Virus record (IMG/VR): IMGVR_UViG_2615840593_000003
Span: 64,001-128,000 of that record
Source of the DNA: a virus
Lineage: Duplodnaviria; Caudoviricetes
DNA length: 64,000 bases
Strand: one strand, 5' to 3'
Position numbers and translations under genes: made by a program. Below are positions 1 through 16,580 of this stretch, in pieces (the first letter of the stretch is position 1; every line of letters starts with the position of its first letter). A model generated the notes under the pieces. The model ran no database searches. It saw only the letters and a program-made list of their open reading frames with translations, and was not told the origin of the DNA.

Positions 1-395
1 CCAGAAATACTCCATTTACGAGGACGTAATCCTATTTCCATAGGATAATGAGTTAACCACATTGAATGCTTATTGTATTTGATTTCAATACCAACTTCAT
101 GATACTCATCCAGTAAACCTAACTTGTTAATTTTTGACCACGTTTTAGAGAAATCATGATTCCCTTTAATTAATCGAATCTTTCCTTTTAACAGTTGTAA
201 AATACTAACTGTCTGCTCATAGTTCCCTAAACAGAAATCACCTAAATGGTACACTATATCATTTTCATCAACTTGTTCATTCCATTTATTAATCATGTGT
301 TCGGTCATTTCTTCAACAGATGAGTATGGTCGATTCTCGAATTCTAAAATTTTCTTATGATGAAAATGTGTATCACTTGTAAACCAAATATTCAT
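1..395 (-). CDS. Calcineurin-like metallophosphoesterase (3' end runs off window)
   Basis: Not in ORF track; read manually: MNIWFTSDTHFHH...YHLGDF...KGNHD; RBS AAGGAGG upstream. Confidence 0.88.
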   Translation of the reverse strand, partial: MNIWFTSDTHFHHKKILEFENRPYSSVEEMTEHMINKWNEQVDENDIVYHLGDFCLGNYEQTVSILQLLKGKIRLIKGNHDFSKTWSKINKLGLLDEYHEVGIEIKYNKHSMWLTHYPMEIGLRPRKWSIS

Positions 396-529
396 TATGT
401 ATTTTCCTCCTTAATTTGTATTTCTCATAAATACATTACTATACCATAAACAAATACAATTCTATCGTTTCATGTATTATGTATTTTCTAGAAGTACACT
501 ATTTTAAATAATATTCTCATATTATGCAA

Positions 530-787
530 TTATTCTATGTCTGCAACATAAATCCATCTAGCATCGTTCTTTTGATGTTCGTAAGGTAAATCTGTATAGT
601 ATTCACTGTCATAAAAATATACTTTTTTAGGAGAACCCAAATACATTGATTCCATCAAGCTATATTTATCGTCATAATGATAATTTTCATCATAATCATA
701 ATATGCCTCTCTTAAAGTAGCCATCTCCATATCACCATGAATTTCTAATACAGCTTTATAATGATTAACAACTTCACTTAATTTCAC
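530..787 (-). CDS. Hypothetical phage protein
   Basis: 85 aa ORF with AGGAG RBS. Confidence 0.7.
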   Translation of the reverse strand: MKLSEVVNHYKAVLEIHGDMEMATLREAYYDYDENYHYDDKYSLMESMYLGSPKKVYFYDSEYYTDLPYEHQKNDARWIYVADIE

Positions 788-803
788 ACTAACATCTCCT
801 TGC

Positions 804-1016
804 TCAAAATTTCTTTGCTAACCATGTTGAAACTTTAGAGATAATTGGTTCATATACGTATTTATCTAATCCAAACATTATCTCCTCAATGTTATAAGCC
901 AAACATCTTAAAATAAATAATGGGAATGTGAATGGTAGCATAACAATTCTCATGGTATTTTCAATAAAACTTTTTACTTTCATTTGCTTTTTCGTACCAA
1001 CAAAATGATTTATCAT
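804..1016 (-). CDS. Hypothetical protein with one hydrophobic segment
   Basis: 70 aa ORF, RBS, IVMLPFTFPLFIL stretch. Confidence 0.7.
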   Translation of the reverse strand: MINHFVGTKKQMKVKSFIENTMRIVMLPFTFPLFILRCLAYNIEEIMFGLDKYVYEPIISKVSTWLAKKF

Positions 1017-1049
1017 CTAATCAATTCCTTTTATAATAGGCTCGTTTTA

Positions 1050-1391
1050 TCAAAAGTATTTTATATGTAATTGTTTATTTTCTTCATATTGCTCACTAGT
1101 GTCATACAATTGTCTTGCCAGTGGCTCTATACTGTATTTCATCATTAGATAAGCATCTGAATCATAGTCTGAACCCTTATCAATCCAAATAAAATGATTC
1201 TTAATACCTCTACTATTTTGTCTAATCGGTGCAGTTTGAATGATCTCTGTATCTGATTCGAAATAGCATTGTGACCTAGTTTTGTATAATCTAATAGCTA
1301 CTTTATTTTTGATTAGCTCTTCGAATTTCAATTTTCCGCGTTCGTAATTATTTGTGTAGATAGATATTTTTATCTTCATATTTACCTCCAT
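1050..1391 (-). CDS. Hypothetical phage protein
   Basis: ORF; probable start at second Met after GGAGGT. Confidence 0.7.
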   Translation of the reverse strand: MEVNMKIKISIYTNNYERGKLKFEELIKNKVAIRLYKTRSQCYFESDTEIIQTAPIRQNSRGIKNHFIWIDKGSDYDSDAYLMMKYSIEPLARQLYDTSEQYEENKQLHIKYF

Positions 1392-1393
1392 GT

Positions 1394-1834
1394 TTATTTA
1401 ATTAATTTGTTCCATAGTTTATCGTATAAATAGTCATCATCAACATATCTCAATATGTATAATATTATCTTTTGCTTGATTCTATCGATAAATGAATATC
1501 TTATGTATATTGACAATTCTTTTTCGTTTTCTTCATTTACATAAGTTGTATACAATTCTATTTCTCTATTTTCTCTACCTTCATACAGCTCTACAACTTC
1601 GTTCTTTATCCTCTCACTCACTAATTCTTTTATCTTATTTTTAGAAGCTATTGAAGCATCTAGAGAAAGCAATCTGATCATATTTTCAGTTTGATTAGGC
1701 TTATCATCTATATTGAGAAATGATTCTTCTACCGTATTAACTATATCTCCAAAGGTTTTTATCCTATTTGATATATCGTTATTTCTCTTTTCTATTTCCT
1801 CAAGCCTATTCCATAACTCATCATAATGAAACAT
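1394..1834 (-). CDS. Hypothetical phage protein
   Basis: 146 aa ORF, AAGGTGAG RBS. Confidence 0.7.
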   Translation of the reverse strand: MFHYDELWNRLEEIEKRNNDISNRIKTFGDIVNTVEESFLNIDDKPNQTENMIRLLSLDASIASKNKIKELVSERIKNEVVELYEGRENREIELYTTYVNEENEKELSIYIRYSFIDRIKQKIILYILRYVDDDYLYDKLWNKLIK

Positions 1835-1868
1835 ATCTCACCTTCTAAACTTTAATAATACTTTGTTT

Positions 1869-2147
1869 TTATTTAATTTCTTCAAATGAAAAATTTATTC
1901 TAACCTTAATCACTTCTTTAACTTTAACGCTGTTTTCATTATAGGTAGGGCTGAAATCATAAGTACTATTATTTTTTATTGCATTAAATACTTCATTAGC
2001 CTTATCAATTTCATCGAAAATAATATTTCTACAATGAGAAACATCAAGGTATACCTCATCAACTACATACTCATCGAAGCGTTCGTCCAATGTGATGTGT
2101 ACAAACTTATTATTTTCAGTTTTTATTACATAGTATTCTTTGTTCAT
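1869..2147 (-). CDS. Hypothetical phage protein
   Basis: 92 aa ORF in co-directional array. Confidence 0.7.
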   Translation of the reverse strand: MNKEYYVIKTENNKFVHITLDERFDEYVVDEVYLDVSHCRNIIFDEIDKANEVFNAIKNNSTYDFSPTYNENSVKVKEVIKVRINFSFEEIK

Positions 2148-2151
2148 AATA

Positions 2152-2346
2152 TTAGATCGCCTCTTTTTTATTTAATCTAACTTCAGCAGTTGTAAATTGA
2201 TTATAAACCCAATAATCATACTCATTATCACCTGAATCGTATATAAAACCTTTATTAAGTAGAAATGAATTCGCTTCTTTTAATGTCTCGAAAAAGTGTA
2301 TCTCATGTATAACAGTATAATGAAATGCGATCTCAACCTTATACAA
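2152..2346 (-). CDS. Hypothetical phage protein
   Basis: 64 aa ORF, AAGGAG RBS. Confidence 0.65.
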   Translation of the reverse strand: MYKVEIAFHYTVIHEIHFFETLKEANSFLLNKGFIYDSGDNEYDYWVYNQFTTAEVRLNKKEAI

Positions 2347-2490
2347 ATAATCTACTCCTTATATTTAATAAAATGACTGTTTCATCAAATTTTATAAGAA
2401 ATATAATAATCAAATTCGCTCCAAAATATCTTTGTTATCATTGAACAAAAATAACAAATGTTGTAATATTTACTTTAAGGAGGGATTATT

Positions 2491-2697
2491 ATGAAAAAAC
2501 TATTAGCTACTCTATTAACAGCAACACTTATATTCTCGTTTATACCAACTGGTAGTGATGATGCTTCAGCCGCAGAATCATATAAGAATTGCAAAGAGCT
2601 GAATAAGAAGTATCCTAACGGTGTTAAGAAAGGTCATCCAGCATACTCAGCTAAACTTGACCGAGATAAAGACGGATGGGCTTGCGAAAAAAATTAA
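2491..2697 (+). CDS. Secreted excalibur calcium-binding domain protein
   Basis: Signal peptide plus YKNCKEL...LDRDKDGWACE excalibur motif; own RBS AAGGAGG and terminator. Confidence 0.9.
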   Translation: MKKLLATLLTATLIFSFIPTGSDDASAAESYKNCKELNKKYPNGVKKGHPAYSAKLDRDKDGWACEKN

Positions 2698-2711
2698 TAT
2701 TTAATAACACT

Positions 2712-2740
2712 TCCACCTATTTAATTAGGTGGATTTTATT
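2712..2740 (+). terminator. Intrinsic terminator after excalibur gene
   Basis: TCCACCTA-loop-TAGGTGGA followed by T-rich run. Confidence 0.7.
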
Positions 2741-2749
2741 GTAATAGAG

Positions 2750-2902
2750 CTATTTTATTGAATCTTTGAATGATTTATCAACATCAGAATCACAAGTTAT
2801 ATGATATTCATCCCAATCCTCACCATATAAACCACCTTCTCGTATATCAATTTCGTCATTTTCACATTTTCTATTACAAACTGGACAATAAAATTCGTAC
2901 AT
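2750..2902 (-). CDS. Small Cys-containing protein (50 aa)
   Basis: Below ORF cutoff; MYEFYCPVCNRKC...; AAAGGGG RBS; bounded by junction sites. Confidence 0.65.
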   Translation of the reverse strand: MYEFYCPVCNRKCENDEIDIREGGLYGEDWDEYHITCDSDVDKSFKDSIK

Positions 2903-2938
2903 ATAAACAAACCCCTTTTAATAATAAGTCTCTTTCAT

Positions 2939-3175
2939 TTAAAATCGGAAACTATAGTTTATTTGCTTATCATGAATTTCTAATAATTTTAAAACTTCCT
3001 CATATACATTCTGTAATTGTTCTGGATTTGCCTTTTTAGGAAAGATTTCACGACTAACATCTAATTCAAATCCATTCTTCCAATGTCTCAAAATTACATT
3101 CTTACGAAAATGATAAATGCTTACACCTAGATCTTTCATGACTTTTGAAAAATCCCCATAATGATTTATTGTCAT
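2939..3175 (-). CDS. Hypothetical phage protein
   Basis: 78 aa ORF, AAGGAG RBS. Confidence 0.7.
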   Translation of the reverse strand: MTINHYGDFSKVMKDLGVSIYHFRKNVILRHWKNGFELDVSREIFPKKANPEQLQNVYEEVLKLLEIHDKQINYSFRF

Positions 3176-3393
3176 TGTTTTTCTCCTTTAGTTGATTAAT
3201 CGAATAACATTTTTCTAGTTTCCTTTTAGAAATCTTCTAATTCACCTGCTAATAGAAGATGTTCAATGTGTTCTTCTGCTTGCATTAAACTAAAACCATG
3301 TGTCATTAAATAATCAATTACTTCATCTTTCATATTCATTTCACATTCTCCTTTTTATGTATTTGTTTTGATAAAAGCATGATATTACTTAAA

Positions 3394-3636
3394 TCATTTA
3401 GCACAAACATCTCTTAAATCTATATCTAGCTTATTACCTATATCATCTTCGATGAATTCTCCATTATATTTACGATGTTTCATTTCCTTTAAAATTTCTT
3501 CTGTGCTATTAAATTCAACCCTATGGAGTGTTCCTTTAAACCCTTCTGAATCCTTATGAATATTATCAATATGACATAAATAAACGCTCACAATATCATT
3601 TCCTTTATTTTTAAGTTTCTCTCTATCGTTTTCCAA
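3394..3636 (-). CDS. Hypothetical phage protein
   Basis: 80 aa ORF. Confidence 0.6.
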   Translation of the reverse strand: MENDREKLKNKGNDIVSVYLCHIDNIHKDSEGFKGTLHRVEFNSTEEILKEMKHRKYNGEFIEDDIGNKLDIDLRDVCAK

Positions 3637-3865
3637 GTATTCTATTCATTTTCTTACCCTCTAGGAATCCATTAGTTTTCTTTTCTGATTTAGACGTCAT
3701 CACTTCACTCATTCTATTGTATTCTTCTACAGTGATACCTAAATTAATTGGATTAGTTTTTTCATCCTTACATGCTTCCATTAAAGATTTAGCTAATTCT
3801 CCAACACTCGTAAAGCATTTTGCTCCTACCCCACCAATAATCATTGATTTATTTATTTCCTCCAT
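3623..3865 (-). CDS. Hypothetical phage protein
   Basis: 80 aa ORF, AGGAGTGG RBS. Confidence 0.65.
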   Translation of the reverse strand: MEEINKSMIIGGVGAKCFTSVGELAKSLMEACKDEKTNPINLGITVEEYNRMSEVMTSKSEKKTNGFLEGKKMNRILGKR

Positions 3866-3875
3866 TTAACCACTC

Positions 3876-4217
3876 CTAAATTTGAAATTCATCCGACTCA
3901 TAAAGGCTCATCATATTATGTCCATATCTTAAAATTCGTTTTGTTGTATCTTGTAGGCATTTAAACTTACCGTTACTATAAATAAACGTGTCTTCAATCT
4001 TGAAGTAACTGCCTTCTCTTACATATCTCATGAATCTACTATCAGCCGTAACGATAATTACATCTTTTTCTTCATCATTAAGTGCATCTACAATTTCCTT
4101 AGTTGCTAGTCCATCATATTCAAATTCAGCAAGAACCCCATTTAATTGTTTTGCTATTTCCAACTTACTTCTTGTGTTACACCAGTGATCAGTCATAACT
4201 AACTTCACTAAAATCAC
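3876..4217 (-). CDS. Hypothetical phage protein
   Basis: 113 aa ORF translationally coupled to upstream gene. Confidence 0.7.
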   Translation of the reverse strand: MILVKLVMTDHWCNTRSKLEIAKQLNGVLAEFEYDGLATKEIVDALNDEEKDVIIVTADSRFMRYVREGSYFKIEDTFIYSNGKFKCLQDTTKRILRYGHNMMSLYESDEFQI

Positions 4218-4453
4218 TCCTTTTCCAAATGAACATTTCCTTTTATCTCATAACTTTCTCCACTTTCTAATTGTCTCCAAGATTCAAAATTATCACGTTG
4301 CTCATACCACCCGATTGGCATACCAAGACAACCTTCTACACTATTATCTACCCATGCAATAATCCATTTTGTATCAGACCCTTCAATAGTCGTATAATCT
4401 CCTTCGTAAATAATATTTCCTGACATATCTATAAAGCTTCTTAACTCAGTCAC
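4214..4453 (-). CDS. YopX-C-terminal-like small protein
   Basis: DMSGNIIYEGD...YEIKGNVH resembles the YopX C-terminal half. Confidence 0.55.
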   Translation of the reverse strand: MTELRSFIDMSGNIIYEGDYTTIEGSDTKWIIAWVDNSVEGCLGMPIGWYEQRDNFESWRQLESGESYEIKGNVHLEKE

Positions 4454-4495
4454 GATTATTCCTCCTAGGTTTTAATAATAATATATTGGTTTCAT

Positions 4496-4711
4496 TTAAT
4501 TTCGATTTGTTAATGCTTCTTGGTATGCTTCAGCATAAGTATTCATTTGTCCTTCTGTATATACTGGATTAAATTCATTTGCAATTTGTTGTAATTTTCC
4601 TGCAATACCAAGAAGGAAATTAATATCATCATCATTAAATTCAGTTATTAATCCATTATCTGCTAATCCTTGTAGGTATTGAATTCTTTCTTGTTCGTTC
4701 ATTTCAATCAC
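4496..4711 (-). CDS. Hypothetical phage protein
   Basis: 71 aa ORF with upstream promoter and RBS. Confidence 0.65.
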   Translation of the reverse strand: MIEMNEQERIQYLQGLADNGLITEFNDDDINFLLGIAGKLQQIANEFNPVYTEGQMNTYAEAYQEALTNRN

Positions 4712-4812
4712 TCCTTTTATTATTTAACTAAATATTACCACACAATAAACATTATCGCAACACATTTTATGTATTTTATTATTTAAAAGTAATAGAGCAA
4801 GGAATATTCTCC

Positions 4813-5259
4813 TCACTCTTTATTATTTGTTTTAATATTTAACGCCTCTTTAATTGCAGTTTGTAATAATTGAGAAAAGTTCAGTCCTGCATCTTCACCT
4901 GCATCACGTAGCCATCTTGGCAATGTGCAATTTTTAGTCACAGCTTTATTAGCAGATTCATTTCGATATGGTGGTATATAAACATCAATAAAAATAATTC
5001 TGTCAGTTGAATCATGTAATTCGATACTTTCAGGATTTGAAGGGATAGGTGATTCTAAATCTTTTTCTTCTAATTCGAGGATGCGAAAAGCTAACATGGT
5101 TTTTGCTTCTCGAATACCTTCTGTGATTTCATCAACTAAAATAGCTGTACCAGTGAAGTCTGGAAAATACATAGAATAATTGTCCTCAGATTGCTCAACT
5201 ACAACTGGATAAATAAAATGATTATAAGTAGACAAATTTATCACTCCTTTTTCATCCAA
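4813..5259 (-). CDS. hicB: HicB-family antitoxin (no adjacent hicA)
   Basis: YPVVVEQ...YSMYFPDF...EAKTML and C-terminal KNCTLPRWL...AGLNFSQLLQTAI RHH motif. Confidence 0.88.
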   Translation of the reverse strand: MDEKGVINLSTYNHFIYPVVVEQSEDNYSMYFPDFTGTAILVDEITEGIREAKTMLAFRILELEEKDLESPIPSNPESIELHDSTDRIIFIDVYIPPYRNESANKAVTKNCTLPRWLRDAGEDAGLNFSQLLQTAIKEALNIKTNNKE

Positions 5260-5304
5260 TTATAGCACGTATAAATGATGCTTGTTAAGAAAAATTAATA
5301 GTCC

Positions 5305-5775
5305 TTATTCCTGCTCCATTGAGCGAAGTGTGAGTATAAAAGCTTTAGCTAAGTTCAATTCTATATCAGTTGCGTGCTCTCCGTCCCCTAATGATAGAAA
5401 GTCATTTTGAATACTATAATCAACAAATAAACCATTTTTATCTTTGGAGTTCATTATTCTATCAAATTCATTGCGAATGCTTACTGGTGTTAACTCTTTA
5501 TAAGTGTTAACTGTATTTATTATTGTTTCTTCCCTAAGTTTTACTAATTCTTCTTCAGATACTTGATAAACTGGTGCTAATTTTAATAATACCGTTGGAG
5601 AAGGCATTCTCTTTGATCGTTCACATAAGCTTATAGCCTGTGCTGATATACCAGTACGTGTAGAAACCTCTTCCATAGTAAGATTTCTTGCTTTACGAAA
5701 AGCCTTCATATTTTTACCTATAATAGGACTTAGATGATAATCGCTTCTTTCGTCTTTCCCTTTGCTGTTCGCCAT
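5305..5775 (-). CDS. XRE-family HTH transcriptional regulator
   Basis: IGKNMKAFRKARNLTMEEVSTRTGISAQAISLCERSKRMPS. Confidence 0.88.
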   Translation of the reverse strand: MANSKGKDERSDYHLSPIIGKNMKAFRKARNLTMEEVSTRTGISAQAISLCERSKRMPSPTVLLKLAPVYQVSEEELVKLREETIINTVNTYKELTPVSIRNEFDRIMNSKDKNGLFVDYSIQNDFLSLGDGEHATDIELNLAKAFILTLRSMEQE

Positions 5776-6013
5776 GATAACACCTCTACTGTTTAAATAA
5801 ATTAATAATTAAACCTACTGTTTATATAGAAGTTATCATGGTAACATAGCAAAGTCAATTTGATATAACTATTTAACCTTCATTTACTTATAATTTATAC
5901 ATGCTGTTCAATGTAATTTCTGTTTTTTAAAGATCATTAATTTTTACCACCATCTACTATTGATATGCTCAATTTCGAATTTACGATTAATTATGTATTT
6001 TCCACTTTAATTG

Positions 6014-6230
6014 TTAATTAAACTTATCAGTATTCAAAATATAATCTGTATCACAAATTATACCTTCACTAAGTTTGATTTCTTCTACTTCCACATTTCT
6101 TCTGTTCTGATCTTTCCATTTATCCATCGCAATACCTTTTTGCCTTTTTCCAATCTCTCGCAACTACAATCATTCCTCTGTTCTCTGTATAACAGCTATA
6201 CTTAATTTTATAAACGTAAAAAATCTTCAC
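6014..6230 (-). pseudogene. Small frameshifted gene (about 71 aa if one A is removed)
   Basis: GGAGTG RBS plus GTG; VKIFYVY...DWKKAK then +1 shift in A-run near 6137-6141; other frame continues GIAMDKW...TDKFN*. Confidence 0.5.
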
Positions 6231-6270
6231 ATTGTTCACTCCATAGCTCTTCATAATACAAATATATTAT

Positions 6271-6483
6271 TTAATCTTCTAACTTTAATTCGTTAATGTA
6301 GTAATAATTATTACCATTGACGTATCGATGATCGCTCCCTAACACCATTTTTGCTACTGAATTCAGTTTATATTTTTCTTCGAGTTTATTGATAGCTGAG
6401 TTCTTATTTTTAAAATAACCAATAACCTCATGTACAGGCTCAATTTGATGAACGTATTTATATTCTGCTTGATAGATAATCAT
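6271..6483 (-). CDS. Hypothetical phage protein
   Basis: 70 aa ORF, AAGGAG RBS. Confidence 0.7.
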   Translation of the reverse strand: MIIYQAEYKYVHQIEPVHEVIGYFKNKNSAINKLEEKYKLNSVAKMVLGSDHRYVNGNNYYYINELKLED

Positions 6484-6529
6484 AGTTGTTCTCCTTTTGT
6501 TTTGTATCTATTTTTATAAAACGTGACTA

Positions 6530-6850
6530 TTATTTAACGTTAATTTCACGAGCTTTATTTCCTTTGTCTAATGTAATTTCTGAATCGTAATATTCGCTAT
6601 TAAACGGACTTCTATATTTTTGTATATAATTATCCTCATTAGCATAAAAATCTAACGCATTTTCTAATTCTTTAATTCGAGCATCCTTTTCAACGATTAA
6701 TCTTTCATAACCTTTATTGATATGGTATCGAGCGTGACACACTTCCTCTAATTCGTTGATTTTACTTTTCATTTCCTCGAACACTTGCCAAATCTTAGGG
6801 GTAGTTCCTACTGAGTTCAGCATTTTCTCCCATTTATCAAAGTTTTCCAT
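6530..6850 (-). CDS. Hypothetical coiled-coil phage protein
   Basis: RIKELENALDFYANEDNY motif seen in Bacillus phage small proteins. Confidence 0.7.
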   Translation of the reverse strand: MENFDKWEKMLNSVGTTPKIWQVFEEMKSKINELEEVCHARYHINKGYERLIVEKDARIKELENALDFYANEDNYIQKYRSPFNSEYYDSEITLDKGNKAREINVK

Positions 6851-6892
6851 TACTATCTCTCCTTTTTTGTTTTCTATAATAGAATCATTTGA

Positions 6893-7171
6893 TTAAATAT
6901 ATACGTATTCACCTAACTCGTATATTGCATCGTTTATTATAATACCTATATCATCAGGCATTTTCCTTTTTTCAAAGTATTGTCTAAGATTATACTTCTC
7001 GTCTAAATAGCTGCTCCATTTTGGGTACAGTTTCACTGGTGAATTATCAGGAAATGGTTCTCCTTGAAGATATTCAAGTACCTCTTTAATTTTACTTATA
7101 CATTCATCAGACATCATCCACCAAGAATATACACTTAATAAAACTTCTGTTTTTACTTTCATAAACATCAC
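6893..7171 (-). CDS. Hypothetical phage protein
   Basis: 92 aa ORF coupled to upstream gene. Confidence 0.65.
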   Translation of the reverse strand: MMFMKVKTEVLLSVYSWWMMSDECISKIKEVLEYLQGEPFPDNSPVKLYPKWSSYLDEKYNLRQYFEKRKMPDDIGIIINDAIYELGEYVYI

Positions 7172-7443
7172 TCCTCACAATAGGGTACTGTTACGCCATT
7201 CTTTTCTATCATCATTTGAGTAGGTGCATTTGAAGTGGTAGAGCCACTACCACGTACATAAGTATAGTAGCAACCTGTACTTTTATGCTTAAGTATAACT
7301 GCTTCGCCACGATATACTTCATCTACTGATACAACATTCATTTCTCCATTATTACTTGCACTCACGTTTCCTTCATTACTCTGATTGCATCCGAATAAAA
7401 CTGTGAATCCTAACATTCCTAATATTATTAATTTACGCTTCAT
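7168..7443 (-). CDS. Small lipoprotein (DUF6440-like)
   Basis: Lipobox VLFGC; ILKHKSTGCYY motif. Confidence 0.7.
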   Translation of the reverse strand: MKRKLIILGMLGFTVLFGCNQSNEGNVSASNNGEMNVVSVDEVYRGEAVILKHKSTGCYYTYVRGSGSTTSNAPTQMMIEKNGVTVPYCEE

Positions 7444-7481
7444 TATGTATTTCCTCCTGTAATTTTAATAAAACTCCTCTT

Positions 7482-7916
7482 TTACTTAATTAACTCTGGA
7501 TTTTCATAAATATTCCCAATCGCTTCTAGTTTATCTAATTCTACAGCGATATTTAGTTGCCAACTACCACAAGGCGACTCTAAATAGTAGCCGTAAACTT
7601 CTCTACTCAATCCACCAACTAATTCATCTCTTGAATCATACACATGCATTCCTTTATTAACTACTAATTTTTGACCATGTGTTTCAATGATATCTTTTTC
7701 ATAAATTGCAATTCCATACTTATCATATAAACCTGTGTTTTGCATAATTTCTAAAGCGTCTAAATTCATAACAGCATAACTTCCGTGTAACCATTGTTCG
7801 TTAGAAGGCAGTGCAAATCTTTTTGCGTCAAATCCATCTGCTTTTAAATATAATGCGAAATTCATATAATGCATATTCTTGTTTAACGGTTCCCATACTC
7901 TAAATTCTTTGTTCAT
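7482..7916 (-). CDS. yopX: YopX family protein
   Basis: KEFRVW...IMQNTGLYDKYGIAIYEKDII...IGNIYENPELI. Confidence 0.9.
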   Translation of the reverse strand: MNKEFRVWEPLNKNMHYMNFALYLKADGFDAKRFALPSNEQWLHGSYAVMNLDALEIMQNTGLYDKYGIAIYEKDIIETHGQKLVVNKGMHVYDSRDELVGGLSREVYGYYLESPCGSWQLNIAVELDKLEAIGNIYENPELIK

Positions 7917-7956
7917 TATATTAATTCTCCTTTTCTGTTTTAATAAAACGGTTCTA

Positions 7957-8211
7957 TTATAGGTTGCCGTTCACTTTATTGTACTCTGTCATTAAATCTT
8001 TATCGCTCAAGATGTCTTGATAAGATTCTGGAAAGGCATCTACAGTCTTCATTGAAATTGCTCTATTGTCACTTGGCTCATCGCTATATCTGAAAATAAT
8101 TACATTATTACAAACGTACATATCGCACATTGTTCCGAAGTCATCTTTATCAACTTTTACAAACTTGCAACAATCTGAATCATGCTTATACATCGGATTC
8201 ATTGTGATCAC
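7957..8211 (-). CDS. Hypothetical phage protein
   Basis: 84 aa ORF; PMYKHDSDCC...FRYSDEPSD. Confidence 0.7.
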   Translation of the reverse strand: MITMNPMYKHDSDCCKFVKVDKDDFGTMCDMYVCNNVIIFRYSDEPSDNRAISMKTVDAFPESYQDILSDKDLMTEYNKVNGNL

Positions 8212-8217
8212 TCCACA

Positions 8218-8406
8218 TTATGTATTTTTGATAATTTCTTGATTTTCTACAGCATAACTATTTCCACGATCCTTTAACTGCCCTATTACAATGTCTTTAC
8301 CTTTAAACATTTTCTTTCCTTCTGCTCTAGCATCTATTTCGCTATAAAATGTTTCATGTACCCACTCAATATTGTGTGCTTCTGTGAAAGTCCATTGATT
8401 ATGCAT
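8218..8406 (-). CDS. Hypothetical phage protein
   Basis: 62 aa ORF, AGGAGG RBS, upstream promoter. Confidence 0.7.
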   Translation of the reverse strand: MHNQWTFTEAHNIEWVHETFYSEIDARAEGKKMFKGKDIVIGQLKDRGNSYAVENQEIIKNT

Positions 8407-8593
8407 TTATCAAAACCTCCTAAATTTTAGTACCTCTTTACCTCTTACATCCATATTAACACTACAACCCATTTAATTCAATAATAATTTATGTATTTTA
8501 TTATTTAAAATTAACATGTTCTTTTGAAAAAGCATAAATTAATTGTTTAGTGAATATAATAAATGTTGATATCTAAATATTAAAATCAAGGAT

Positions 8594-9151
8594 GTGGTAA
8601 CTTTGGACATACTTACTCAAGATGCTTTAGATAAAGAAATGTTGGATAAATATAGTTTAAATAATTGTGTAAATTCAACCACAATTAAAGAAAGTATCTA
8701 TGTTAGATTGATTTCATACGCATTAATATTGGCTTCTGGGTATATGATGAAGATTGAATTTTTCAATTATCCATTAACTTTTAATAAAACATTTATATCT
8801 GTGATTTTATCTTATTTATTAATTATCCCTATTCATGAAATGTTACATTATATTCCTTTTAAAATCCTTAAATACAATCCAAAATTAAATTTACTAAATA
8901 ATACAATTGATGGAGCAATAAAAAGAGAAGATTTAATGATCATTTCGATATCACCATTAATTATTATCTCTACCTTTTTGATTATTTTAATGACTATTTT
9001 TACTTCTTATATTCCATTACTCGTAATGATCATTGGGATTCACTTACTTACTTGTATTAATGATTTAGCTCAATTTAGCATCGCAAAGAAATTCCATAAA
9101 AACTGCTATATAGGAGTTGCTAATAAAACTGAGTACAGAGGATATTTATAA
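8594..9151 (+). CDS. DUF3267-like membrane zinc metalloprotease
   Basis: Several TM helices with IHEMLH (HExxH), ISPLII and CINDL motifs. Confidence 0.75.
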   Translation: MVTLDILTQDALDKEMLDKYSLNNCVNSTTIKESIYVRLISYALILASGYMMKIEFFNYPLTFNKTFISVILSYLLIIPIHEMLHYIPFKILKYNPKLNLLNNTIDGAIKREDLMIISISPLIIISTFLIILMTIFTSYIPLLVMIIGIHLLTCINDLAQFSIAKKFHKNCYIGVANKTEYRGYL

Positions 9152-9504
9152 CTTCTGTACTCAGTTTTTAATATTATATAAACAATTTTACTAATACACT
9201 CTCTCAAAGTAAAGGCAGTACCCACTCTCTCGTTCCTAGACTTACTGATAATTTCGTTATGATTTAATTCCGTCATCATTTTCCTCCTTTACTGTATATT
9301 ATTTAGTTCCTATGTATTGATTCCATAGCGATATCAAACCATCTTTGAGCATCTAAATTTAATCTCCGTGAATTATTTCTCTCATCCTCTAATTGTTTTC
9401 TCAATTTGTTATTTTCATCTTCCAAATACTCTGTTCGTGCTTTCAATTCTTCGTAATTTAGATTTTTCATTTAAATATCTCCTTTTATAAAATGAACATA
9501 TTGT

Positions 9505-9690
9505 TTAATCTTCTAAGTAAGTAACTATTACACCGCTAAATAAACCTATGTATCCGCCAATGAGAATTGATACAAAAGTAGCTCCTTCATAAAAATTAAA
9601 ATAACTACGAGTAATCACTTGTACATAGTTTAATAAAATAACTAAAATTGAAAATGTAATAATTTTTTTCAAATTCACAAAAGATACCAC
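9505..9690 (-). CDS. Small two-TM membrane protein
   Basis: 61 aa hydrophobic ORF. Confidence 0.6.
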   Translation of the reverse strand: MVSFVNLKKIITFSILVILLNYVQVITRSYFNFYEGATFVSILIGGYIGLFSGVIVTYLED

Positions 9691-9740
9691 CTTTTTTATT
9701 TATGTATTTAATCGAATAATTTATAATTAATCACTGTTAT

Positions 9741-9983
9741 TTAACCTTCTTCTAGACCGTATTCTTTCATTTTCTTTTCTAATTCGTGAATTCTGATTTT
9801 CCTACGCATCTTTTCAATTCTTAATAATTCTTCTCTCGCCTCCATTTCTTCTTTATCTCTTGTTAATCGTTCCATCGTTTTCATTGCCTCAATACGTAGT
9901 CGACTTTCATATTCTGTAGAAGCACTGTGATAATTCCTATATTCATAACGCTTATTATTTTTTGACTTGAATAAACCGAACAT
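9741..9983 (-). CDS. Hypothetical coiled-coil protein
   Basis: 80 aa ORF, AAGGAGGAG RBS. Confidence 0.7.
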   Translation of the reverse strand: MFGLFKSKNNKRYEYRNYHSASTEYESRLRIEAMKTMERLTRDKEEMEAREELLRIEKMRRKIRIHELEKKMKEYGLEEG

Positions 9984-10050
9984 GATTATTCTCCTCCTTT
10001 GATAATATTCAGTTTTTATTTATTTTATTATTTAGAAAAGGAAGGTGGCA

Positions 10051-10296
10051 TTAAGCCACCATATCCTTTCTTAATAGTAGAACGTGTTGATACAGTGATG
10101 TTCCTTCATATCGAATAGGTTTAATGCCATCTGGACGTTCTGATTTCATCTTATTCACTATTCCACTTGCACTTAATGAATTGTATTTTGAAATGTACTC
10201 TCTAATAATTGAATCCTCTAGATGTGACCAATGATCATTTTGTTTTCTCATCCTTACAATTCCACCCTTCTGTTGTTTGGTGATATTGTAGCACAA
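10051..10296 (-). CDS. Hypothetical protein (Myb-like WS..ED..I motif)
   Basis: HWSHLEDSII; start codon uncertain. Confidence 0.5.
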   Translation of the reverse strand: MCYNITKQQKGGIVRMRKQNDHWSHLEDSIIREYISKYNSLSASGIVNKMKSERPDGIKPIRYEGTSLYQHVLLLRKDMVA

Positions 10297-10717
10297 AACC
10301 TACCTATATTAATATTATATCTTGTTTGAAAGTATCGTATTTATATGATTATGTATTTAACAATTATTTGTTTTTTGTACACCTTCGATAATATCTATCT
10401 TTTATTTAACTTTTAATATTATTTCCAATTGATTTTAGCTGTTTAAATACTTCTCATAACACTTTATGCCTCCGATTAACTAAAGCTCTCTATTAATTAG
10501 CAGCGAGTTAATTCATTACTAAAGACGTTTGCAACATTTCCGAAAGTTCGATTACCAGTATCGACCAAGCGAAATGCAAGTAAAGGTTGCATAAATCTTT
10601 GTATATAAAGAATAATATATAAGATACATAATATACAGTATTTACGATTCATAATTTCACCTTTTCAGGTAAAATTCCAATCGTGAAAATTTTTCTCTTT
10701 TATCCTTCTTCTACTAT

Positions 10718-11338
10718 TCATAACTTATGTAAATTAACACTATAATGATTATTAAACTTTTCTAACCCACTATCACCAAATGGATCATATTCTGCTTTGT
10801 GCTTAGTGATAGTAACCAACTTTTCTTTTACTAACAATTTATTGTACTTTGTTACTGAGAAATTACTTATTCCTAAATCAATTTGAATGGTTTCATAAGA
10901 CGGATAACAAAATAACTTTGTCATGTCACTTCTGTTGATGTAGGATTCATAATAATACATTAATCTAAATCCTATTAAACCCACTCTATCAATTGATTTT
11001 AATAGCTCTAAAGGTAATTGAGTAAAGTAGTCACTTTTACAAGGATCTAACATTATAATCTGCAATGGTTTATTAATTGGTAACTTGTCTATTTGATACT
11101 TAATCAAACCTTGGTTATGTAAATTTGAAAAGCACTTCTTGAGAGTCCTATTATCAGTAACTCCTGTTACAAATTTTATATCTTTAAGTAAAACGTTTAT
11201 TTCACTATTATTGAATGCTTTAAATTTCTTAAAAAGTAAAAACGCATAAACAACAAAAGACTTCTCATCAATATTGAATCCTATGTTTCTAACAATTTCA
11301 GTTGGTACTTGCAGCCATATTTTATTATTATCTTTCAT
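10718..11338 (-). CDS. Tandem winged-helix DNA-binding / replication-initiator-like protein
   Basis: Two internal repeats (WLQVPTEIV / FTQLPLELL); CYPSYETIQIDLGIS HTH typical of phage Rep-like proteins. Confidence 0.6.
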   Translation of the reverse strand: MKDNNKIWLQVPTEIVRNIGFNIDEKSFVVYAFLLFKKFKAFNNSEINVLLKDIKFVTGVTDNRTLKKCFSNLHNQGLIKYQIDKLPINKPLQIIMLDPCKSDYFTQLPLELLKSIDRVGLIGFRLMYYYESYINRSDMTKLFCYPSYETIQIDLGISNFSVTKYNKLLVKEKLVTITKHKAEYDPFGDSGLEKFNNHYSVNLHKL

Positions 11339-11400
11339 TTTATTTCAACCTTTATGTATATTGTTTACTAAAATAAGATACCTCCACCTCCATTCTTATT

Positions 11401-11637
11401 TCACCTTGTAACAATAATTTTCCCTTTTTCATCATAATCCCAACTGTAACGGTTTCCACAATCTTCGCAACTCATCAATTGTTCATCTACTCCAAATTTC
11501 TCAAACTTATCGTAAATTTTTTTGGACTTTTCGCCCTTTTTAGTTATTCTATAATGAACTTCTGTGTATTCAAGTTCGACAAATAAAAGTTTTCCACCAC
11601 AAGAGCACACAGGAACTTGATATGCCAAAAATTTCAC
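11401..11637 (-). CDS. Small zinc-ribbon protein
   Basis: CSCGG...CEDCG; paralog of 12191-12439. Confidence 0.7.
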   Translation of the reverse strand: MKFLAYQVPVCSCGGKLLFVELEYTEVHYRITKKGEKSKKIYDKFEKFGVDEQLMSCEDCGNRYSWDYDEKGKIIVTR

Positions 11638-11665
11638 TCCCTAATTATATTTTTGTTTATAATAT

Positions 11666-11872
11666 TCAGTAATCTTTCAGAAATTCAATAAAGGAATCTG
11701 TCCAGTTACTGCCATTTTCAATGCAGTCAATATATTGATCTGCCACTGTATCATTTTCGTAGTACCCATTACTGTCTAGCCAATCTCTGACAATCTTTTC
11801 TTTTTCCCTTGCAATTTGAAAAGACTCTCCTGCTAATTTAATTGCTTCTTGGATTTCTTTTGGTACTCTCAT
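11666..11872 (-). CDS. Hypothetical phage protein
   Basis: 68 aa ORF, AAGGAG RBS. Confidence 0.7.
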   Translation of the reverse strand: MRVPKEIQEAIKLAGESFQIAREKEKIVRDWLDSNGYYENDTVADQYIDCIENGSNWTDSFIEFLKDY

Positions 11873-11900
11873 AATTTATTCTCCTTAACATACATTTTTT

Positions 11901-12092
11901 CTAATATGAATTAAGAACTTCAACCATTTTTTCTTTTATGTACTTTGGAATAGAACTCTGTTTCATTATTTCAAATCTATTGTCATGAATTCTTGTTGTT
12001 CTACCACTATAACTAAAAACTCTAACGCCATTTTTGAATTTGACAATGCTCCACTTACCATCATTAAAAACAATATCTCCCACACACACCAT
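11901..12092 (-). CDS. Hypothetical phage protein
   Basis: 63 aa ORF. Confidence 0.6.
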   Translation of the reverse strand: MVCVGDIVFNDGKWSIVKFKNGVRVFSYSGRTTRIHDNRFEIMKQSSIPKYIKEKMVEVLNSY

Positions 12093-12190
12093 CCTTCATA
12101 TTTTCAAACAATCTATAATGAATCTATTATTTTAACGCTCTACTTCCTTTGTTCTAGCATTACACTCATATTGATCATTAAGGAATTTGA

Positions 12191-12439
12191 TTAATATGTT
12201 TGATGATACCTTTCTTCAACGTCAATTACTCGCCCTTTATCATCTAAATCGTAATCGAATAATTCACCACAGCTACCGTTATCACACTCTAAATAATCTT
12301 TGCTTGTATCAAATACTTGTGGTATATTATCAGATTTGCGTTTAGAAATCGTATTTCGTTTAGTTAAAGGTATTCTATATACAAGCTCAGTTTCTTTATA
12401 AAGAAATAATTCACCTGTTTTACAAATAGGGCATTTCAA
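12191..12439 (-). CDS. Small zinc-ribbon protein
   Basis: CPIC...CDNGSCG; paralog of 11401-11637. Confidence 0.7.
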   Translation of the reverse strand: MKCPICKTGELFLYKETELVYRIPLTKRNTISKRKSDNIPQVFDTSKDYLECDNGSCGELFDYDLDDKGRVIDVEERYHQTY

Positions 12440-12481
12440 ATCAAATCACCTTCCAGTATATTTTTTAATAATAGATGTGTT

Positions 12482-12775
12482 TTACTTAATTGTTATTTCT
12501 TTAGCATAATACCAACCTACTCCCGTATTTCCCCACAATTTACTGATATCATCATATCGTTCTGATAGGTAACTATCATAAACCATAATATAGTTAACTC
12601 CATCTTTGACTATACAAGATATCATTTCGTCGCTTTCTAATTCTTTATTACAATACTCATCAAGATATTTGATTGCATCACTTATAGACGTATAAACTGT
12701 AAAATCTACCACATCATCTTGCTCATAATGATCTTCGATCCAATATTTCACCATTGGGATATAGCCTTTTTTCAC
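12482..12775 (-). CDS. Hypothetical phage protein
   Basis: 97 aa ORF, GGGAGG RBS. Confidence 0.7.
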   Translation of the reverse strand: MKKGYIPMVKYWIEDHYEQDDVVDFTVYTSISDAIKYLDEYCNKELESDEMISCIVKDGVNYIMVYDSYLSERYDDISKLWGNTGVGWYYAKEITIK

Positions 12776-12808
12776 TTTAAAATTCCTCCCTTTTATAATA
12801 GTTCTACA

Positions 12809-13039
12809 TTATTTAATATAGATTTGCTTTGTACGTAATGCTAAATCACCCAATGTTAGTTTCAAATCACGCTCAGTCAAAGTACCATCTTCATTCAAAA
12901 TATTTAAAATAGCTTCAATTGATTCTTCGACTAAAGCTTCACGATAATTATCTTTTGCTTCCTCTAATTTTTCTTGCTTATCCTCTAACTCATATTTTGC
13001 TTTGTTCATCATACTCCACACTTCATCTTTTTTACTCAT
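12809..13039 (-). CDS. Hypothetical coiled-coil protein
   Basis: Start reassigned to ATG after AAGGAG (MSKKDEV...). Confidence 0.7.
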   Translation of the reverse strand: MSKKDEVWSMMNKAKYELEDKQEKLEEAKDNYREALVEESIEAILNILNEDGTLTERDLKLTLGDLALRTKQIYIK

Positions 13040-13070
13040 TTGAATCTCTCCTTTTAATAATAACTTCATT

Positions 13071-13244
13071 TTACTTAGTTGTGAAAGTTACAACAAACTC
13101 AAACTTACAATTGAACTCTTTTTCACATTCTTCACACACCATATTAAAATTACCTTCCATATCATCAGTCTCAATACCATAATTCTGCCAATCCTCATAT
13201 TCATGTTTGCAATGTGGACATATGATTGCTTCATTTGACATCAT
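13071..13244 (-). CDS. Small zinc-ribbon protein (57 aa)
   Basis: Below ORF cutoff; CPHC...CEEC; GAGGTGA RBS; bounded by junction sites. Confidence 0.7.
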   Translation of the reverse strand: MMSNEAIICPHCKHEYEDWQNYGIETDDMEGNFNMVCEECEKEFNCKFEFVVTFTTK

Positions 13245-13289
13245 ACAAAAATCACCTCTCTTTCATTAATAGACTTCTATTATCTAATC

Positions 13290-13901
13290 TTAATCAATTC
13301 CTAATTCATCTTTTTCATATTCTTTTTTACTCTGAATCATTTCAGACATACAGTCTTTATTAACTTTTACTTCCTTATATACAGCTATAGCTTTTTCTTT
13401 AGAATCAAAGAATAAATACTTAAATTTATCAATTTTTAAATCAAGGTAGCTGACTACATATTCACTATCAACCTCTAATTTTGAAATTAAAATTTCAGCT
13501 TCTTTCTCTTCGTCATCTTCATATTCATCATAATCTTCATTATCTGTATTCTCTTCTTCATTAAAACAAGCTAAATATCGCTGTGGAACTAAATGAATTG
13601 AACCTGTTGTATCTTCACATAAAGCCATTCCATTATCGTATTTATAAATAACAATTAGCGTTGCATACCGTTCAAGACCTTCATGTGGCTCTTGAATTAT
13701 TGTTTCTATATCTAAGCATTCTTCCTCAACAGAATGTATACCTAATCTCAATAGCTGATCACGATATTCCATTGAATCATCTAATATTACATCTATATCA
13801 CTAGTAGACATACCTCTATCATCTAATTCATCATAAATCTTATCCTCAATTTTTTTAAATCCATTAATTATATCAAATGTTGCTTTATCCATTAATTGCA
13901 C
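13290..13901 (-). CDS. Hypothetical acidic protein
   Basis: 203 aa ORF. Confidence 0.7.
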   Translation of the reverse strand: MQLMDKATFDIINGFKKIEDKIYDELDDRGMSTSDIDVILDDSMEYRDQLLRLGIHSVEEECLDIETIIQEPHEGLERYATLIVIYKYDNGMALCEDTTGSIHLVPQRYLACFNEEENTDNEDYDEYEDDEEKEAEILISKLEVDSEYVVSYLDLKIDKFKYLFFDSKEKAIAVYKEVKVNKDCMSEMIQSKKEYEKDELGID

Positions 13902-13919
13902 TCCCTGTTATTTGTTACT

Positions 13920-14336
13920 TCAAAGTTTTTTATCAATAAATTTGATTAACTCATCTTTCATTAGTTCCTTAATGAAAACATGCATTGGCTTATTTGCTTT
14001 TAATTGATTACATCTTCTACAAGCACATACGACCATTTCCTCTGTGGTGAATATTTTATACTCAGATTGAGGAACAATATGATCTATTGTATTTCCAAAC
14101 TTTCCGCAATATTGACAGATATTTTTATCTCTTTTTAGCACTCTTTCTTTTAAAGGCGGTAGTTGAACTGTTAATTTTATAGTGTCAGGTGCAACAATTA
14201 TTGCGTATCCTTTTTTAACTTCATATAATGCTTTTTCAAAAAATGTTCTACCATGCTTACCTTCTTTATGCCAATCAGCTATTACTTTTATAAACGGTGC
14301 TGAATTATCTAATTCCATATCTAAAACCTCTTTCAT
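13920..14336 (-). CDS. HNH endonuclease
   Basis: RDKNICQYCG...TIDHIVP...CACRRCNQLK. Confidence 0.88.
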   Translation of the reverse strand: MKEVLDMELDNSAPFIKVIADWHKEGKHGRTFFEKALYEVKKGYAIIVAPDTIKLTVQLPPLKERVLKRDKNICQYCGKFGNTIDHIVPQSEYKIFTTEEMVVCACRRCNQLKANKPMHVFIKELMKDELIKFIDKKL

Positions 14337-14366
14337 TAAAGTAAACTATTATATAAAATGCTGATA

Positions 14367-14600
14367 TTACTTAAAATTGGAATTAAGCTTTATTTCTATA
14401 TTTTCAAATGGTATACCTCTTCTTGTACCCTCTTTAACCACTGCACTATCAATAAACATTTCCTTACCATCTTTATAAATTATTTTTACACCATTGTTAT
14501 GATTAATAAAACTTCCTATATCTTCCATATTAACAGTTATTACTTCACAATCATCAGTTTCATATGAAGTTCCATCATTTTTATAAATTTTCATAAGCAT
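14367..14600 (-). CDS. Hypothetical phage protein
   Basis: 77 aa ORF bounded by junction sites. Confidence 0.6.
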   Translation of the reverse strand: MLMKIYKNDGTSYETDDCEVITVNMEDIGSFINHNNGVKIIYKDGKEMFIDSAVVKEGTRRGIPFENIEIKLNSNFK

Positions 14601-14633
14601 TCTTCTTTTCGTAATATTATACTTTTATAGAAA

Positions 14634-14843
14634 TTAAATTTTACTGGCTAAATTATATGTAAGAGATTTAATTTCATCCAGTTTTTTACGTTCACACTTA
14701 ATAGAATCAATCAAATGAAATAAGTCAGACTCCAGTTCTTTATTATCACTAGCATGTTTCATCAATATAGACATAACTTCTTGTTCTAGTTTTGTAAAAT
14801 CTACTTTTTCAATATTTTCACTTACCATATTTAGCTCCTCCAA
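14634..14843 (-). CDS. Hypothetical phage protein
   Basis: 69 aa ORF. Confidence 0.6.
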   Translation of the reverse strand: MEELNMVSENIEKVDFTKLEQEVMSILMKHASDNKELESDLFHLIDSIKCERKKLDEIKSLTYNLASKI

Positions 14844-15012
14844 TTTTACCTAAATTAAATTTTACTTTATGTACAAATGGTATACAACTTCCAACTACAA
14901 ATTACAGTGAGTATTTATAGTTAGTTGAAGCCACCATTTTTCTTAAAACAAGATTACCACAATTCATGTACAATCGTCAATATATTTTGTGTATTTTATT
15001 ATTTAATTTCTT

Positions 15013-16071: not shown

Positions 16072-16121
16072 TCCTTAAATTCTGTTGGATTTAAATTTCA
16101 AACCACACAATTAATAAATCA

Positions 16122-16329
16122 ACATTCTATATACCTCTATTTTCGCATTAGGAAATTCTACAGATTTCAATTTTTAAAATGTAAAATTCTACGATTTTGA
16201 TTTTTTAATTCTATAGTTTTGATTTTTCGCATTACAAAATTCTACCCATTTCATTTTTTGATTTCAGAAATTCTATAGGTTTCATTTTTCACATTTATAA
16301 ATTCTATATTTTCTGATTTTTCATTCATA
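16122..16329. repeat. Seven imperfect direct repeats, 31-bp period (core AATTCTA..T-tracts)
   Basis: Units start 16122, 16153, 16184, 16206, 16237, 16268, 16299 (spacing 31,31,22,31,31,31). Confidence 0.85.
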
Positions 16330-16580
16330 GAATTATAGTTTCTTCATAGTTTTATATGCCGAAAACATATTCGATATTACCTCATTTAAATACTTCGAAT
16401 TAAATAATATTGAGATATTACATAAACATATACAGTTAAACAACTTTTAACATATCTAGCGTAATCATAGAGAGTGTTTTCTGTTATTTACAGCACCAAT
16501 TACCACCTACCGAAAAACGTTATGTATATATTTATTTAACGATTAAAAAATAAGCCTTCTTACATATTATTATGTTACTT

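Follow-up and report, generated by a model that had tools for sequence, protein, structure and literature searches.

Ordered intergenic arm-N6-arm sites with conserved private spacers in SPbeta-like phages: candidate addresses for position-specific gene exchange

Phage mosaicism is debated between illegitimate recombination followed by selection and guided exchange at linkers; the modular theory of Botstein (1980) is said to have proposed conserved short sequences at module joints, such as the boundary sequences of lambdoid phages, as guides of exchange. The core sites of tyrosine recombinases (dif/XerCD, loxP/Cre, FRT/Flp) consist of two inverted arms that flank a centre of 6-8 bp, and the centres of the two partners must be identical; in engineered exchange with heterospecific lox or FRT sites, different centres are mutually incompatible, which preserves order and orientation. 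We know of no natural array of dozens of mutually incompatible core sites. In integrons, whose IntI is a tyrosine recombinase, attC travels with its cassette and cassettes take any position. The pdif modules of Acinetobacter plasmids carry arm-6-arm Xer-type sites resembling the chromosomal dif, in alternating orientation and varied contexts, and to our knowledge no ordered address system has been described for them. T4-type phages possess PeSLs, short conserved intergenic elements that flank small non-essential genes in hyperplastic regions and are described at the boundaries of insertions, deletions and replacements (PMC2839356, PMC4122927). Here we analyze sites of the form RTAAWA-N6-TWTTAY between the early genes of a 64-kb stretch of viral DNA (henceforth the window), bases 64001-128000 of the 154,764-bp virus record IMGVR_UViG_2615840593_000003 (Duplodnaviria; Caudoviricetes). 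Each site has a private 6-bp spacer that recurs in the same order in related phages, next to mostly unrelated genes. Weighing the comparisons below, we consider the chances evenly poised that the sites are position-addressed double-stranded DNA recombination junctions, probably core sites of a tyrosine recombinase.

Nineteen copies of the motif are present in the window, where 1.36 would be expected (sd 1.11, maximum 5; 0 of 100 dinucleotide shuffles reached 19), the looser form DTAAWA-N6-TWTTAH gives 24 matches against 3.92, and the whole record contains 51 sites against 2 for a reversed-pattern control. Forty-six of the 51 lie within the first 85 kb, the minus-strand gene block; positions 1..17500 (-) of the window are part of this early/accessory block of ~81 kb (genome 1 to ~81,500, by GC skew and the strand of open reading frames, ORFs), which carries the array. 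None of the 46 falls inside a gene call (the calls are rough and were made for the present analysis). The stop codon of the upstream gene ends between 9 nt inside and 12 nt before the site in 31 of the 46, often with TAA within ATAA, and the following start codon lies 15-42 nt past the site in 30. The preliminary description, made from the letters of the window alone, had claimed such an enrichment and a site-RBS-ORF layout (RBS, ribosome-binding site) at stop codons, both of which hold; its eight example sites are all where it placed them, and its "about 22" copies between 508 and 14628 agree with our 15 exact copies, one more than the 14 it counted, plus 7 with 1-2 arm mismatches whose spacer is matched at an order-consistent place in a relative. 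It had noticed none in the structural module, which is nearly right, the plus-strand late/structural part of the window having one exact site (55153) besides that at 21795 near the block boundary.

The two inverted arms frame a 6-bp centre as in the core sites of tyrosine recombinases; read along the genes, conservation reaches further, to TTAA-ATAAWA-N6-TWTTAT-WAAA, the added TTAA and WAAA being partly symmetric. The preliminary description spoke of palindromic sites, but the two W positions are non-complementary in 36 of the 46 sites of the present record and in 136 of 179 across four genomes, and most sites are therefore imperfect palindromes. The W preference gives one ATAAAA and one ATAATA half-site, in either order, and is not seen in the sites of SPbeta; it could reflect two different half-site binders or avoidance of perfect palindromes. 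As an inverted repeat between same-strand genes, the motif might be taken for an RNA element, i.e. an intergenic hairpin serving as terminator, processing site or stabilizer of early polycistronic transcripts. However, folding of the 28-nt site RNA yields a mean minimum free energy of -0.80 kcal/mol (shuffles: -0.58), the arms are paired in 11 of 47, the core is found in both orientations relative to the genes (AA 18, TT 18), and the sites show neither covariation nor a T-tract; we give an RNA function hardly any credence, and a hairpin or terminator was rejected on account of the weak folding and the non-complementary W positions. Terminator-like matches numbered 5 against 3.3 expected. A sigma-A promoter was likewise rejected (no -35/-10 pair at usable spacing in the aligned consensus; promoter-like matches 119 versus 121.2 expected), as was the operator of MrpR, the master repressor of SPbeta: the SPBRE element, derived from seven SPbeta upstream regions as ~AAATACAAAWAATATGTATATA, differs in sequence from the site.

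Five related virus records (G001-G005) were found with a 206-aa cassette protein and the YopP-like protein and compared as whole records; an earlier search with a 144-aa protein, which returned 80 loci of 27-41% identity on unrelated contigs, was not used. The five contain 36, 47, 45, 49 and 42 sites (controls: 0-2), and in all six records the sites are confined to the early block. Genome pairs have 19-27 spacers in common, as compared to 0.7-1.3 expected (maximum 6), counts that are non-independent because the pairs share ancestry. The order of the shared spacers never differs (Spearman 1.000, 0 inversions), each spacer is found no more than once in any genome, and the order graph of 99 spacers over the six records, 61 of them present in at least two, contains no conflict. 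Of the spacers in two prophages of Lysinibacillus isolates, 14 of 18 and 16 of 17 are shared, again without any change of order. Homologous genes mostly keep their address (32 versus 13 upstream, 20 versus 6 downstream). The spacer belongs to the position and not to the gene.

The surroundings of cognate sites, i.e. those with the same spacer in different genomes, are mostly unrelated. With 100 nt compared on each side of 373 cognate pairs, neither flank was similar in 280, only the upstream one in 38, only the downstream one in 39 and both in 16; comparison of proteins in four genomes found no flanking homologue on either side in 74 of 140 cognate pairs, and homologues on both sides in 2. Fifty-one slots have the same pair of addresses as their borders in two or more records, and 173 comparisons of their hypervariable contents gave 100 unrelated, 47 partial and 26 homologous cases. 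Several slots have as many alleles as there are genomes, and where alleles are shared (identities 68-100%), the genome pairs involved change from slot to slot. Junctions were also compared with three relatives. Among the informative cases, those at an exact site comprised 37 broken and 4 kept, and those at a site with 1-2 mismatches 39 broken and 14 kept. The corresponding numbers for junctions without the motif are 31 and 24 for gaps under 35 nt and 15 and 8 for gaps of 35 nt or more (pooled: 46 broken, 32 kept). The breakpoints of gene presence and absence among relatives fall at the sites, in line with the earlier view of them as gene-cassette boundaries with a core geometry resembling that of tyrosine-recombinase sites.

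Cognates chosen by identical spacer bias the first conservation profiles; a second set, found by position with at most 3 mismatches over 18 bp, comprises 246 pairs. Their mismatches per position number 11-24 in the spacer, 5-42 at the fixed arm positions and 37-71 at the R/W/Y arm positions; the spacer therefore equals the best arm positions in conservation, and it is kept at many sites despite damaged arms. The preliminary description had pointed to the tolerance of Tn916-type integrases for non-matching spacers, an appeal that is not supported, as the spacers are the most informative part of the site. Identity of the central region between partners is present as a comparative signature: cognate spacers are identical and their flanks unrelated. 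Among the 38 pairs in which only the upstream flank is homologous, 33 have an identical left arm and 25 an identical right arm; among the 39 with homology confined to the downstream flank, these counts become 23 and 34. Fisher tests give p=0.0097 (left arm) and p=0.033 (right arm), values that are optimistic, the pairs being phylogenetically non-independent. Arm variants thus travel with their own flank, and this puts the point of exchange inside the site, between its arms and in or at the spacer; the preliminary description had suggested a comparison of breakpoints with the 6-bp spacers.

These two observations bear on another explanation, a purely regulatory array of operator or "stoperator" sites for a repressor or early-gene regulator, in which mosaic joints would come to lie at the sites through selection for joints at gene ends. 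An arm-6-arm geometry suits dimeric helix-turn-helix operators, the sites are at gene ends in a single transcription block, the phage encodes an MrpR-like protein, and repressor sites at gene ends are described in cluster A mycobacteriophages (PMC9283540). Yet such an array would account neither for position-specific spacers that are identical across genomes amid unrelated flanks nor for the segregation of arm variants with their flanks. Moreover, the ten ChAP-seq (chromatin affinity purification and sequencing) peaks of MrpR in SPbeta are, in the part of the report available to us, all SPBRE (PMC10516654), though SPbeta has dozens of sites of the present type (see below). We regard this explanation as improbable, and an operator array, named as the alternative in the preliminary description, is not supported as a full account.

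The same site family was found in SPbeta itself. An unbiased scan of its genome ranked TAAAA-N6-TTTTA, present in 34 copies, first among all 5-mer inverted repeats;.TAAWA-N6-TWTTA. sites number 37 and mostly follow stop codons of the early block. SPbeta and phi3T have 21 spacers in common (null 0.92, maximum 5). At several of their cognate pairs the DNA is unrelated on one side or on both (cognate sites with unrelated flanks include those starting at SPbeta positions 69423, 88399, 116414, 117534 and 118469), and blocks of homology begin or stop at the sites; among informative junctions with a site, 10 of 16 switch between aligned and unaligned DNA. One example is the pair with spacer TATTCC and unrelated flanks at positions 116414-116431 of SPbeta (NC_001884; between yorZ and yosA) and 106529-106546 of phi3T (PP526178): homology to this SPbeta site is lost exactly at its last base in 7 of 15 matching phage records. 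In the phi3Ts-SPbeta hybrids Hyb2 and Hyb3, SPbeta sequence spans the yorZ/yosA site, the change of parent being upstream of it in homologous DNA. A single phi3Ts-SPbeta recombination site is reported as "nonhomologous" and as "following yosA" (10.1101/2020.05.06.055103), and it may correspond to the site at 116414. In two SPbeta-like phages of Mammaliicoccus the palindrome that ranks first in SPbeta does so again (15 and 18 copies per 50 kb), and 9 spacers are common to both. Between genera, sharing of spacers was not above chance (1 versus 3.0, 2 versus 1.65 and 1 versus 0.77 expected). The arms extend over the whole family and the addresses are specific to a lineage, as recombination-compatibility groups would give.

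We propose that the shared arms (TTAA-ATAAWA ... TWTTAT-WAAA) are bound by one protein recognizing every junction and that the private spacer plays the part that the overlap region has in tyrosine-recombinase core sites. Sites would then recombine only if their spacers agree, i.e. at the same junction of two related phages, either co-infecting or present as prophage and incoming phage, and two cognate crossovers would replace the gene(s) of one slot while gene order is kept. Protein binding, strand-exchange chemistry and the identity of the enzyme are inferred from the comparative patterns. Unique and conserved spacers in a fixed order predict cognate-only, order-preserving exchange, rather than excised circles or reshuffling within a genome; in view of these features, the integron-like shuffling suggested in the preliminary description is not supported.

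The main rival explanation concerns the short identity at the junctions. Between cognates, identity is at background level outside ~-4/+21, and where both flanks are unrelated the tract of perfect identity around the spacer has a median of 18 bp (15 bp or less in 63 of 280 pairs). Tracts of 15-18 bp are short for homologous recombination. Nonetheless, the sites could be PeSL-like linkers, the palindrome being a binding or regulatory signal that each infection requires, e.g. for a dimeric helix-turn-helix protein, and exchange a by-product of short-homology recombination at islands of ~18-26 bp, carried out by a Sak4-like annealing protein, a RecJ-like exonuclease or RecA, with cognate specificity arising from the longer identity of cognate islands. 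Such a route has a precedent in T4-type phages, where promoter/terminator cassettes drive modular shuffling by homologous recombination (PMC2839356, PMC4122927), and in laboratory phi3Ts-SPbeta hybrids 15 of 16 reported recombination sites are in homologous regions (10.1101/2020.05.06.055103). The present phage encodes a RecJ-like and a probable Sak4-like protein, and crossovers between the arms would fit equally well. However, the tracts are not only very short but often broken at W and R/Y positions; plain homology expects equal weight for arms and spacer, yet variation is 2-4 times higher at the W/R/Y arm positions than in the spacer; no regulatory function was detected (no stable hairpin, no promoter consensus, not the MrpR element); and homology alone leaves unexplained why all linkers have a common palindromic frame. 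We therefore favor a recombinase, because of the common frame, the short and interrupted identity and the freer R/W/Y positions, and consider PeSL-like linkers rather unlikely.

The catalyst would most likely be a phage tyrosine recombinase. Three genes of tyrosine-recombinase fold are present, encoding YomM-like, YopP-like and MrpR-like proteins (Table 1). The preliminary description named the recombinase at 47801-48829 (YomM-like) as a possible actor; it remains one candidate, joined by two from outside the window. Conservation in all relatives (67-69% in five, with R174, H262, K265, H289 and Y298 invariant) makes the YopP-like protein the first candidate, and YomM-like or host Xer recombinases are the alternatives. 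The catalytic residues were read by eye from the motifs, since a phmmer search of PDB chains with the YopP-like protein gave no match; read in this way, the present YomM-like protein has the full R..HxxR..H..Y set. Transcription of SPbeta yopP in lysogens has been reported (10.1101/2021.11.22.469490). A junction site with spacer GGAACA is found directly upstream of the YopP-like gene in five of six records.

Several points weigh against recombinase-mediated exchange. The YopP family has Lys at the usual second catalytic Arg position (HSFK; R..H-x-x-K..H..Y), as does SPbeta YomM, and the MrpR-like protein is devoid of the first catalytic Arg. The arms (6 bp, ~10 with flanks) are short compared with known core sites. 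A 379-aa protein with a weak UvsX-like match stands at the position of SPbeta YorG, annotated as Sak4-like, so that the phage probably has an annealing recombinase, and short-homology recombination could yield an identical comparative pattern. Breakpoints are not exclusive to sites, as 18 of 57 informative site-less junctions between SPbeta and phi3T switch too. Palindromic, reverse-complement and duplicated spacers all had zero counts, which agrees with the proposal but is not significant given null values of ~1.0, 0.5 and 0.45 per genome (range ~0.4-1.2). With these reservations, we put somewhat short of an even chance on the broader proposal that SPbeta-like phages, including SPbeta and phi3T, carry a natural recombinase-mediated cassette exchange system, in which ~45-50 mutually incompatible core sites (pan-array ~80) would allow a YopP-family recombinase to swap single slots while genome order is kept, and address sets would define exchange communities at about the genus level.

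Table 1. Positions of the sites and of other features. Numbers are window coordinates unless marked "genome"; spacers are listed on the gene (sense) strand; G001-G005 are the five related virus records.
Feature	Position	Strand	Form or size	Cognates and remarks
Site TGAGAA	508..525		exact	G001, G002, G003, G005
Site CGAGCC	1033..1050		exact	G001, G003, G004; 1-nt variant CGAGTC in G005
Site ACAAAG	1855..1872		exact	G001, G003, G004
Site CAGTCA	2368..2385		degenerate, 1 arm mismatch	G003, order-consistent
Site TAGCTC	2741..2758		exact	no identical cognate; 1-nt variant TCGCTC in G002, downstream flank homologous
Site GAGACT	2921..2938		degenerate, 1 mismatch	G001, order-consistent
Site TCATGC	3371..3388		exact	5/5 other records
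Site TATTTG	6253..6270		exact	G001, G005 (exact); G002, G003 (degenerate arms)
Site GTCACG	6516..6533		exact	5/5 other records, flanks unrelated
Site TGATTC	6876..6893		degenerate, 1 mismatch	G001, G004, order-consistent
Site GAGGAG	7468..7485		exact	G002-G005
Site GAACCG	7943..7960		exact	sole cognate a degenerate-arm copy in G003
Site TGTTCA	9487..9504		degenerate, 1 mismatch	G005
Site GTGATT	9723..9740		degenerate, 2 mismatches	G001, G003, G005
Site ACTGAA	10002..10019		exact	G001, G003, G004, G005
Site GATAGA	10388..10405		exact	homology to two relatives stops 4-8 nt past site
Site CACATC	12468..12485		exact	5/5 other records
Site TAGAAC	12795..12812		degenerate, 1 mismatch	G001, G002
Site TGAAGT	13057..13074		exact	G001, G003, G005
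Site GAAGTC	13266..13283		T at position 1	G002, G003, G005
Site TCAGCA	14353..14370		exact	G001, G002, G004, G005
Site GTATAA	14611..14628		exact	G001, G002, G003, G005
Site TCTCAA	16404..16421		exact	G002; beyond the range of the preliminary description
Site CTTACA	17054..17071		exact	1-nt variant ATTACA in G002, downstream flank homologous
Site AGCATA	21795..21812		exact	minus-strand reading; near start of plus-strand block; G001-G004, flanks unrelated
YomM-like tyrosine recombinase	47801..48829	+	342 aa	PHROG integrase 4.4e-29; R...HSIR...H...Y motifs by eye
YopP-like tyrosine recombinase	genome 51796-52872	-	358 aa	outside window
MrpR-like protein	genome 49421-50395	-	324 aa	outside window
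yopP-yopQ-yopR-like trio	genome 49421-52872	-		middle member 444 aa, phrog_5732, no assigned function
HicB-like antitoxin, Xre-type regulator, HNH endonuclease, GmrSD-N-like protein	4813-5259, 5305-5775, 13920-14336, 15013-16071	-		cassette contents
ORF opposite to its block	8594-9151	+	185 aa	
Protein at SPbeta YonO position	29206-31959	+	917 aa	phrog_8308, no assigned function
Tape-measure-like ORF	52250-54553	+	767 aa	
HNH/homing-endonuclease-like ORF	55315-57156	+	613 aa	
ORF of SPbeta YomI size	57306-63983	+	2225 aa	

The phage itself is a distant SPbeta relative. Its late genes are colinear with SPbeta yonO-yonD, starting with the 917-aa YonO-like protein (SPbeta YonO is the phage RNA polymerase) and continuing with a 405-aa exonuclease at the YonJ position, a terminase-sized protein and a portal. 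The early block, in agreement with an SPbeta-like genome context, encodes a large serine recombinase, ribonucleotide reductase, DNA polymerase III alpha subunit, RecJ-like protein, helicase and primase, together with the yopP-yopQ-yopR-like trio, of which the third protein has matches to the Pfam MrpR domains; protein identity to SPbeta YopR and YopP is low, ~24-29%. Two prophages of Lysinibacillus genomes have YopP-like proteins 85% and 70% identical to that of the phage, and the host is therefore most likely Lysinibacillus. A megablast search of phage records with positions 1-15000 of the window gave no match, and a tRNA scan detected no tRNA.

Most of the cassette proteins other than those in Table 1 have no family match. 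The DNA of the 185-aa ORF, which runs against the minus-strand block, is 83-90% identical in three relatives (~9170-8575) and is therefore a conserved island among variable slots. In the late region, the tape-measure-like, endonuclease-like and YomI-sized ORFs follow one another (52250-63983), and a mobile endonuclease gene or an intron may split the tape measure. Analysis of the window also revealed a second frequent motif, AATACATAA, with 35 copies against 3.13 expected (e.g. 3355-3363 (-), 7443-7451 (-), 17884-17892 (+) and 37750-37758 (+)). It is always on the local gene strand (10 minus copies before 10.4 kb, 25 plus copies after 17.9 kb), immediately 5' of ribosome-binding sites and often 3-10 nt past a junction site. 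It resembles one half of the SPbeta SPBRE (ATACA...TGTAT) and may serve the MrpR-like protein as its half-site or be a transcription signal specific to the phage.

With regard to the debate on mosaicism, a dense and regular scaffold with conserved addresses and hypervariable contents is the clearest case at the level of sequence for guided, position-specific exchange known to us, and the mechanism is directly testable in Bacillus subtilis, as SPbeta and phi3T carry sites of this family. Should a recombinase carry out the exchange, the conserved YopP family would gain a function, the fast turnover of accessory genes, probably for anti-defence and host takeover, would be explained, and dozens of ready orthogonal recombination sites would be at hand for genome engineering. 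We found no prior description of the sites in full-text literature searches or in SPbeta papers, a search that did not cover supplementary files or the SPbeta genome paper of Lazarevic et al. (1999), which may mention the repeat. Guided modular exchange at conserved intergenic sites is known in kind; there is a substantial chance that the sites represent a new kind of site-specific recombination system.

Among the known systems, the PeSLs of T4-type phages share the position at boundaries with the present sites. However, PeSLs are described as mutually similar cassettes of a sigma-70 promoter and a terminator, which recombine by homology and can form mini-circles (PMC2839356, PMC4122927), whereas the sites analyzed here have no promoter or terminator signal, a unique conserved spacer each, and a fixed order. 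The SPBRE/MrpR system resembles them in having repeated intergenic sites over the prophage and a protein of tyrosine-recombinase fold, but SPBRE has another sequence and about ten copies, with no conserved position-specific spacers in the part of the report considered (PMC10516654). The stoperators of cluster A mycobacteriophages are asymmetric, with an orientation tied to transcription and, as far as the descriptions available to us go, without position-specific spacers (PMC9283540, PMC6550527), whereas the present sites are near-palindromic and occur in both orientations. With pdif modules they have in common gene modules bounded by arm-6-arm sites with differing spacers. Integrons are similar as arrays of small, mostly promoterless accessory genes between imperfect palindromic recombination sites, accompanied by a tyrosine recombinase. 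They differ in that the spacer here stays with the position, identical spacers stand beside unrelated genes and the order is fixed, so that the sites do not behave like attC; the recombinase-like genes sit within the array and not at its end, and no attI/Pc platform was seen, although no IntI-specific test was made. The lambdoid boundary sequences are sporadic and have no common palindromic frame, unlike the ~45-50 framed sites per genome, which form a scaffold. The logic is the same as that of tyrosine-recombinase core sites and of engineered lox and FRT exchange, from which the present sites differ in their shorter arms and in the putative catalytic competence of the candidate enzymes.

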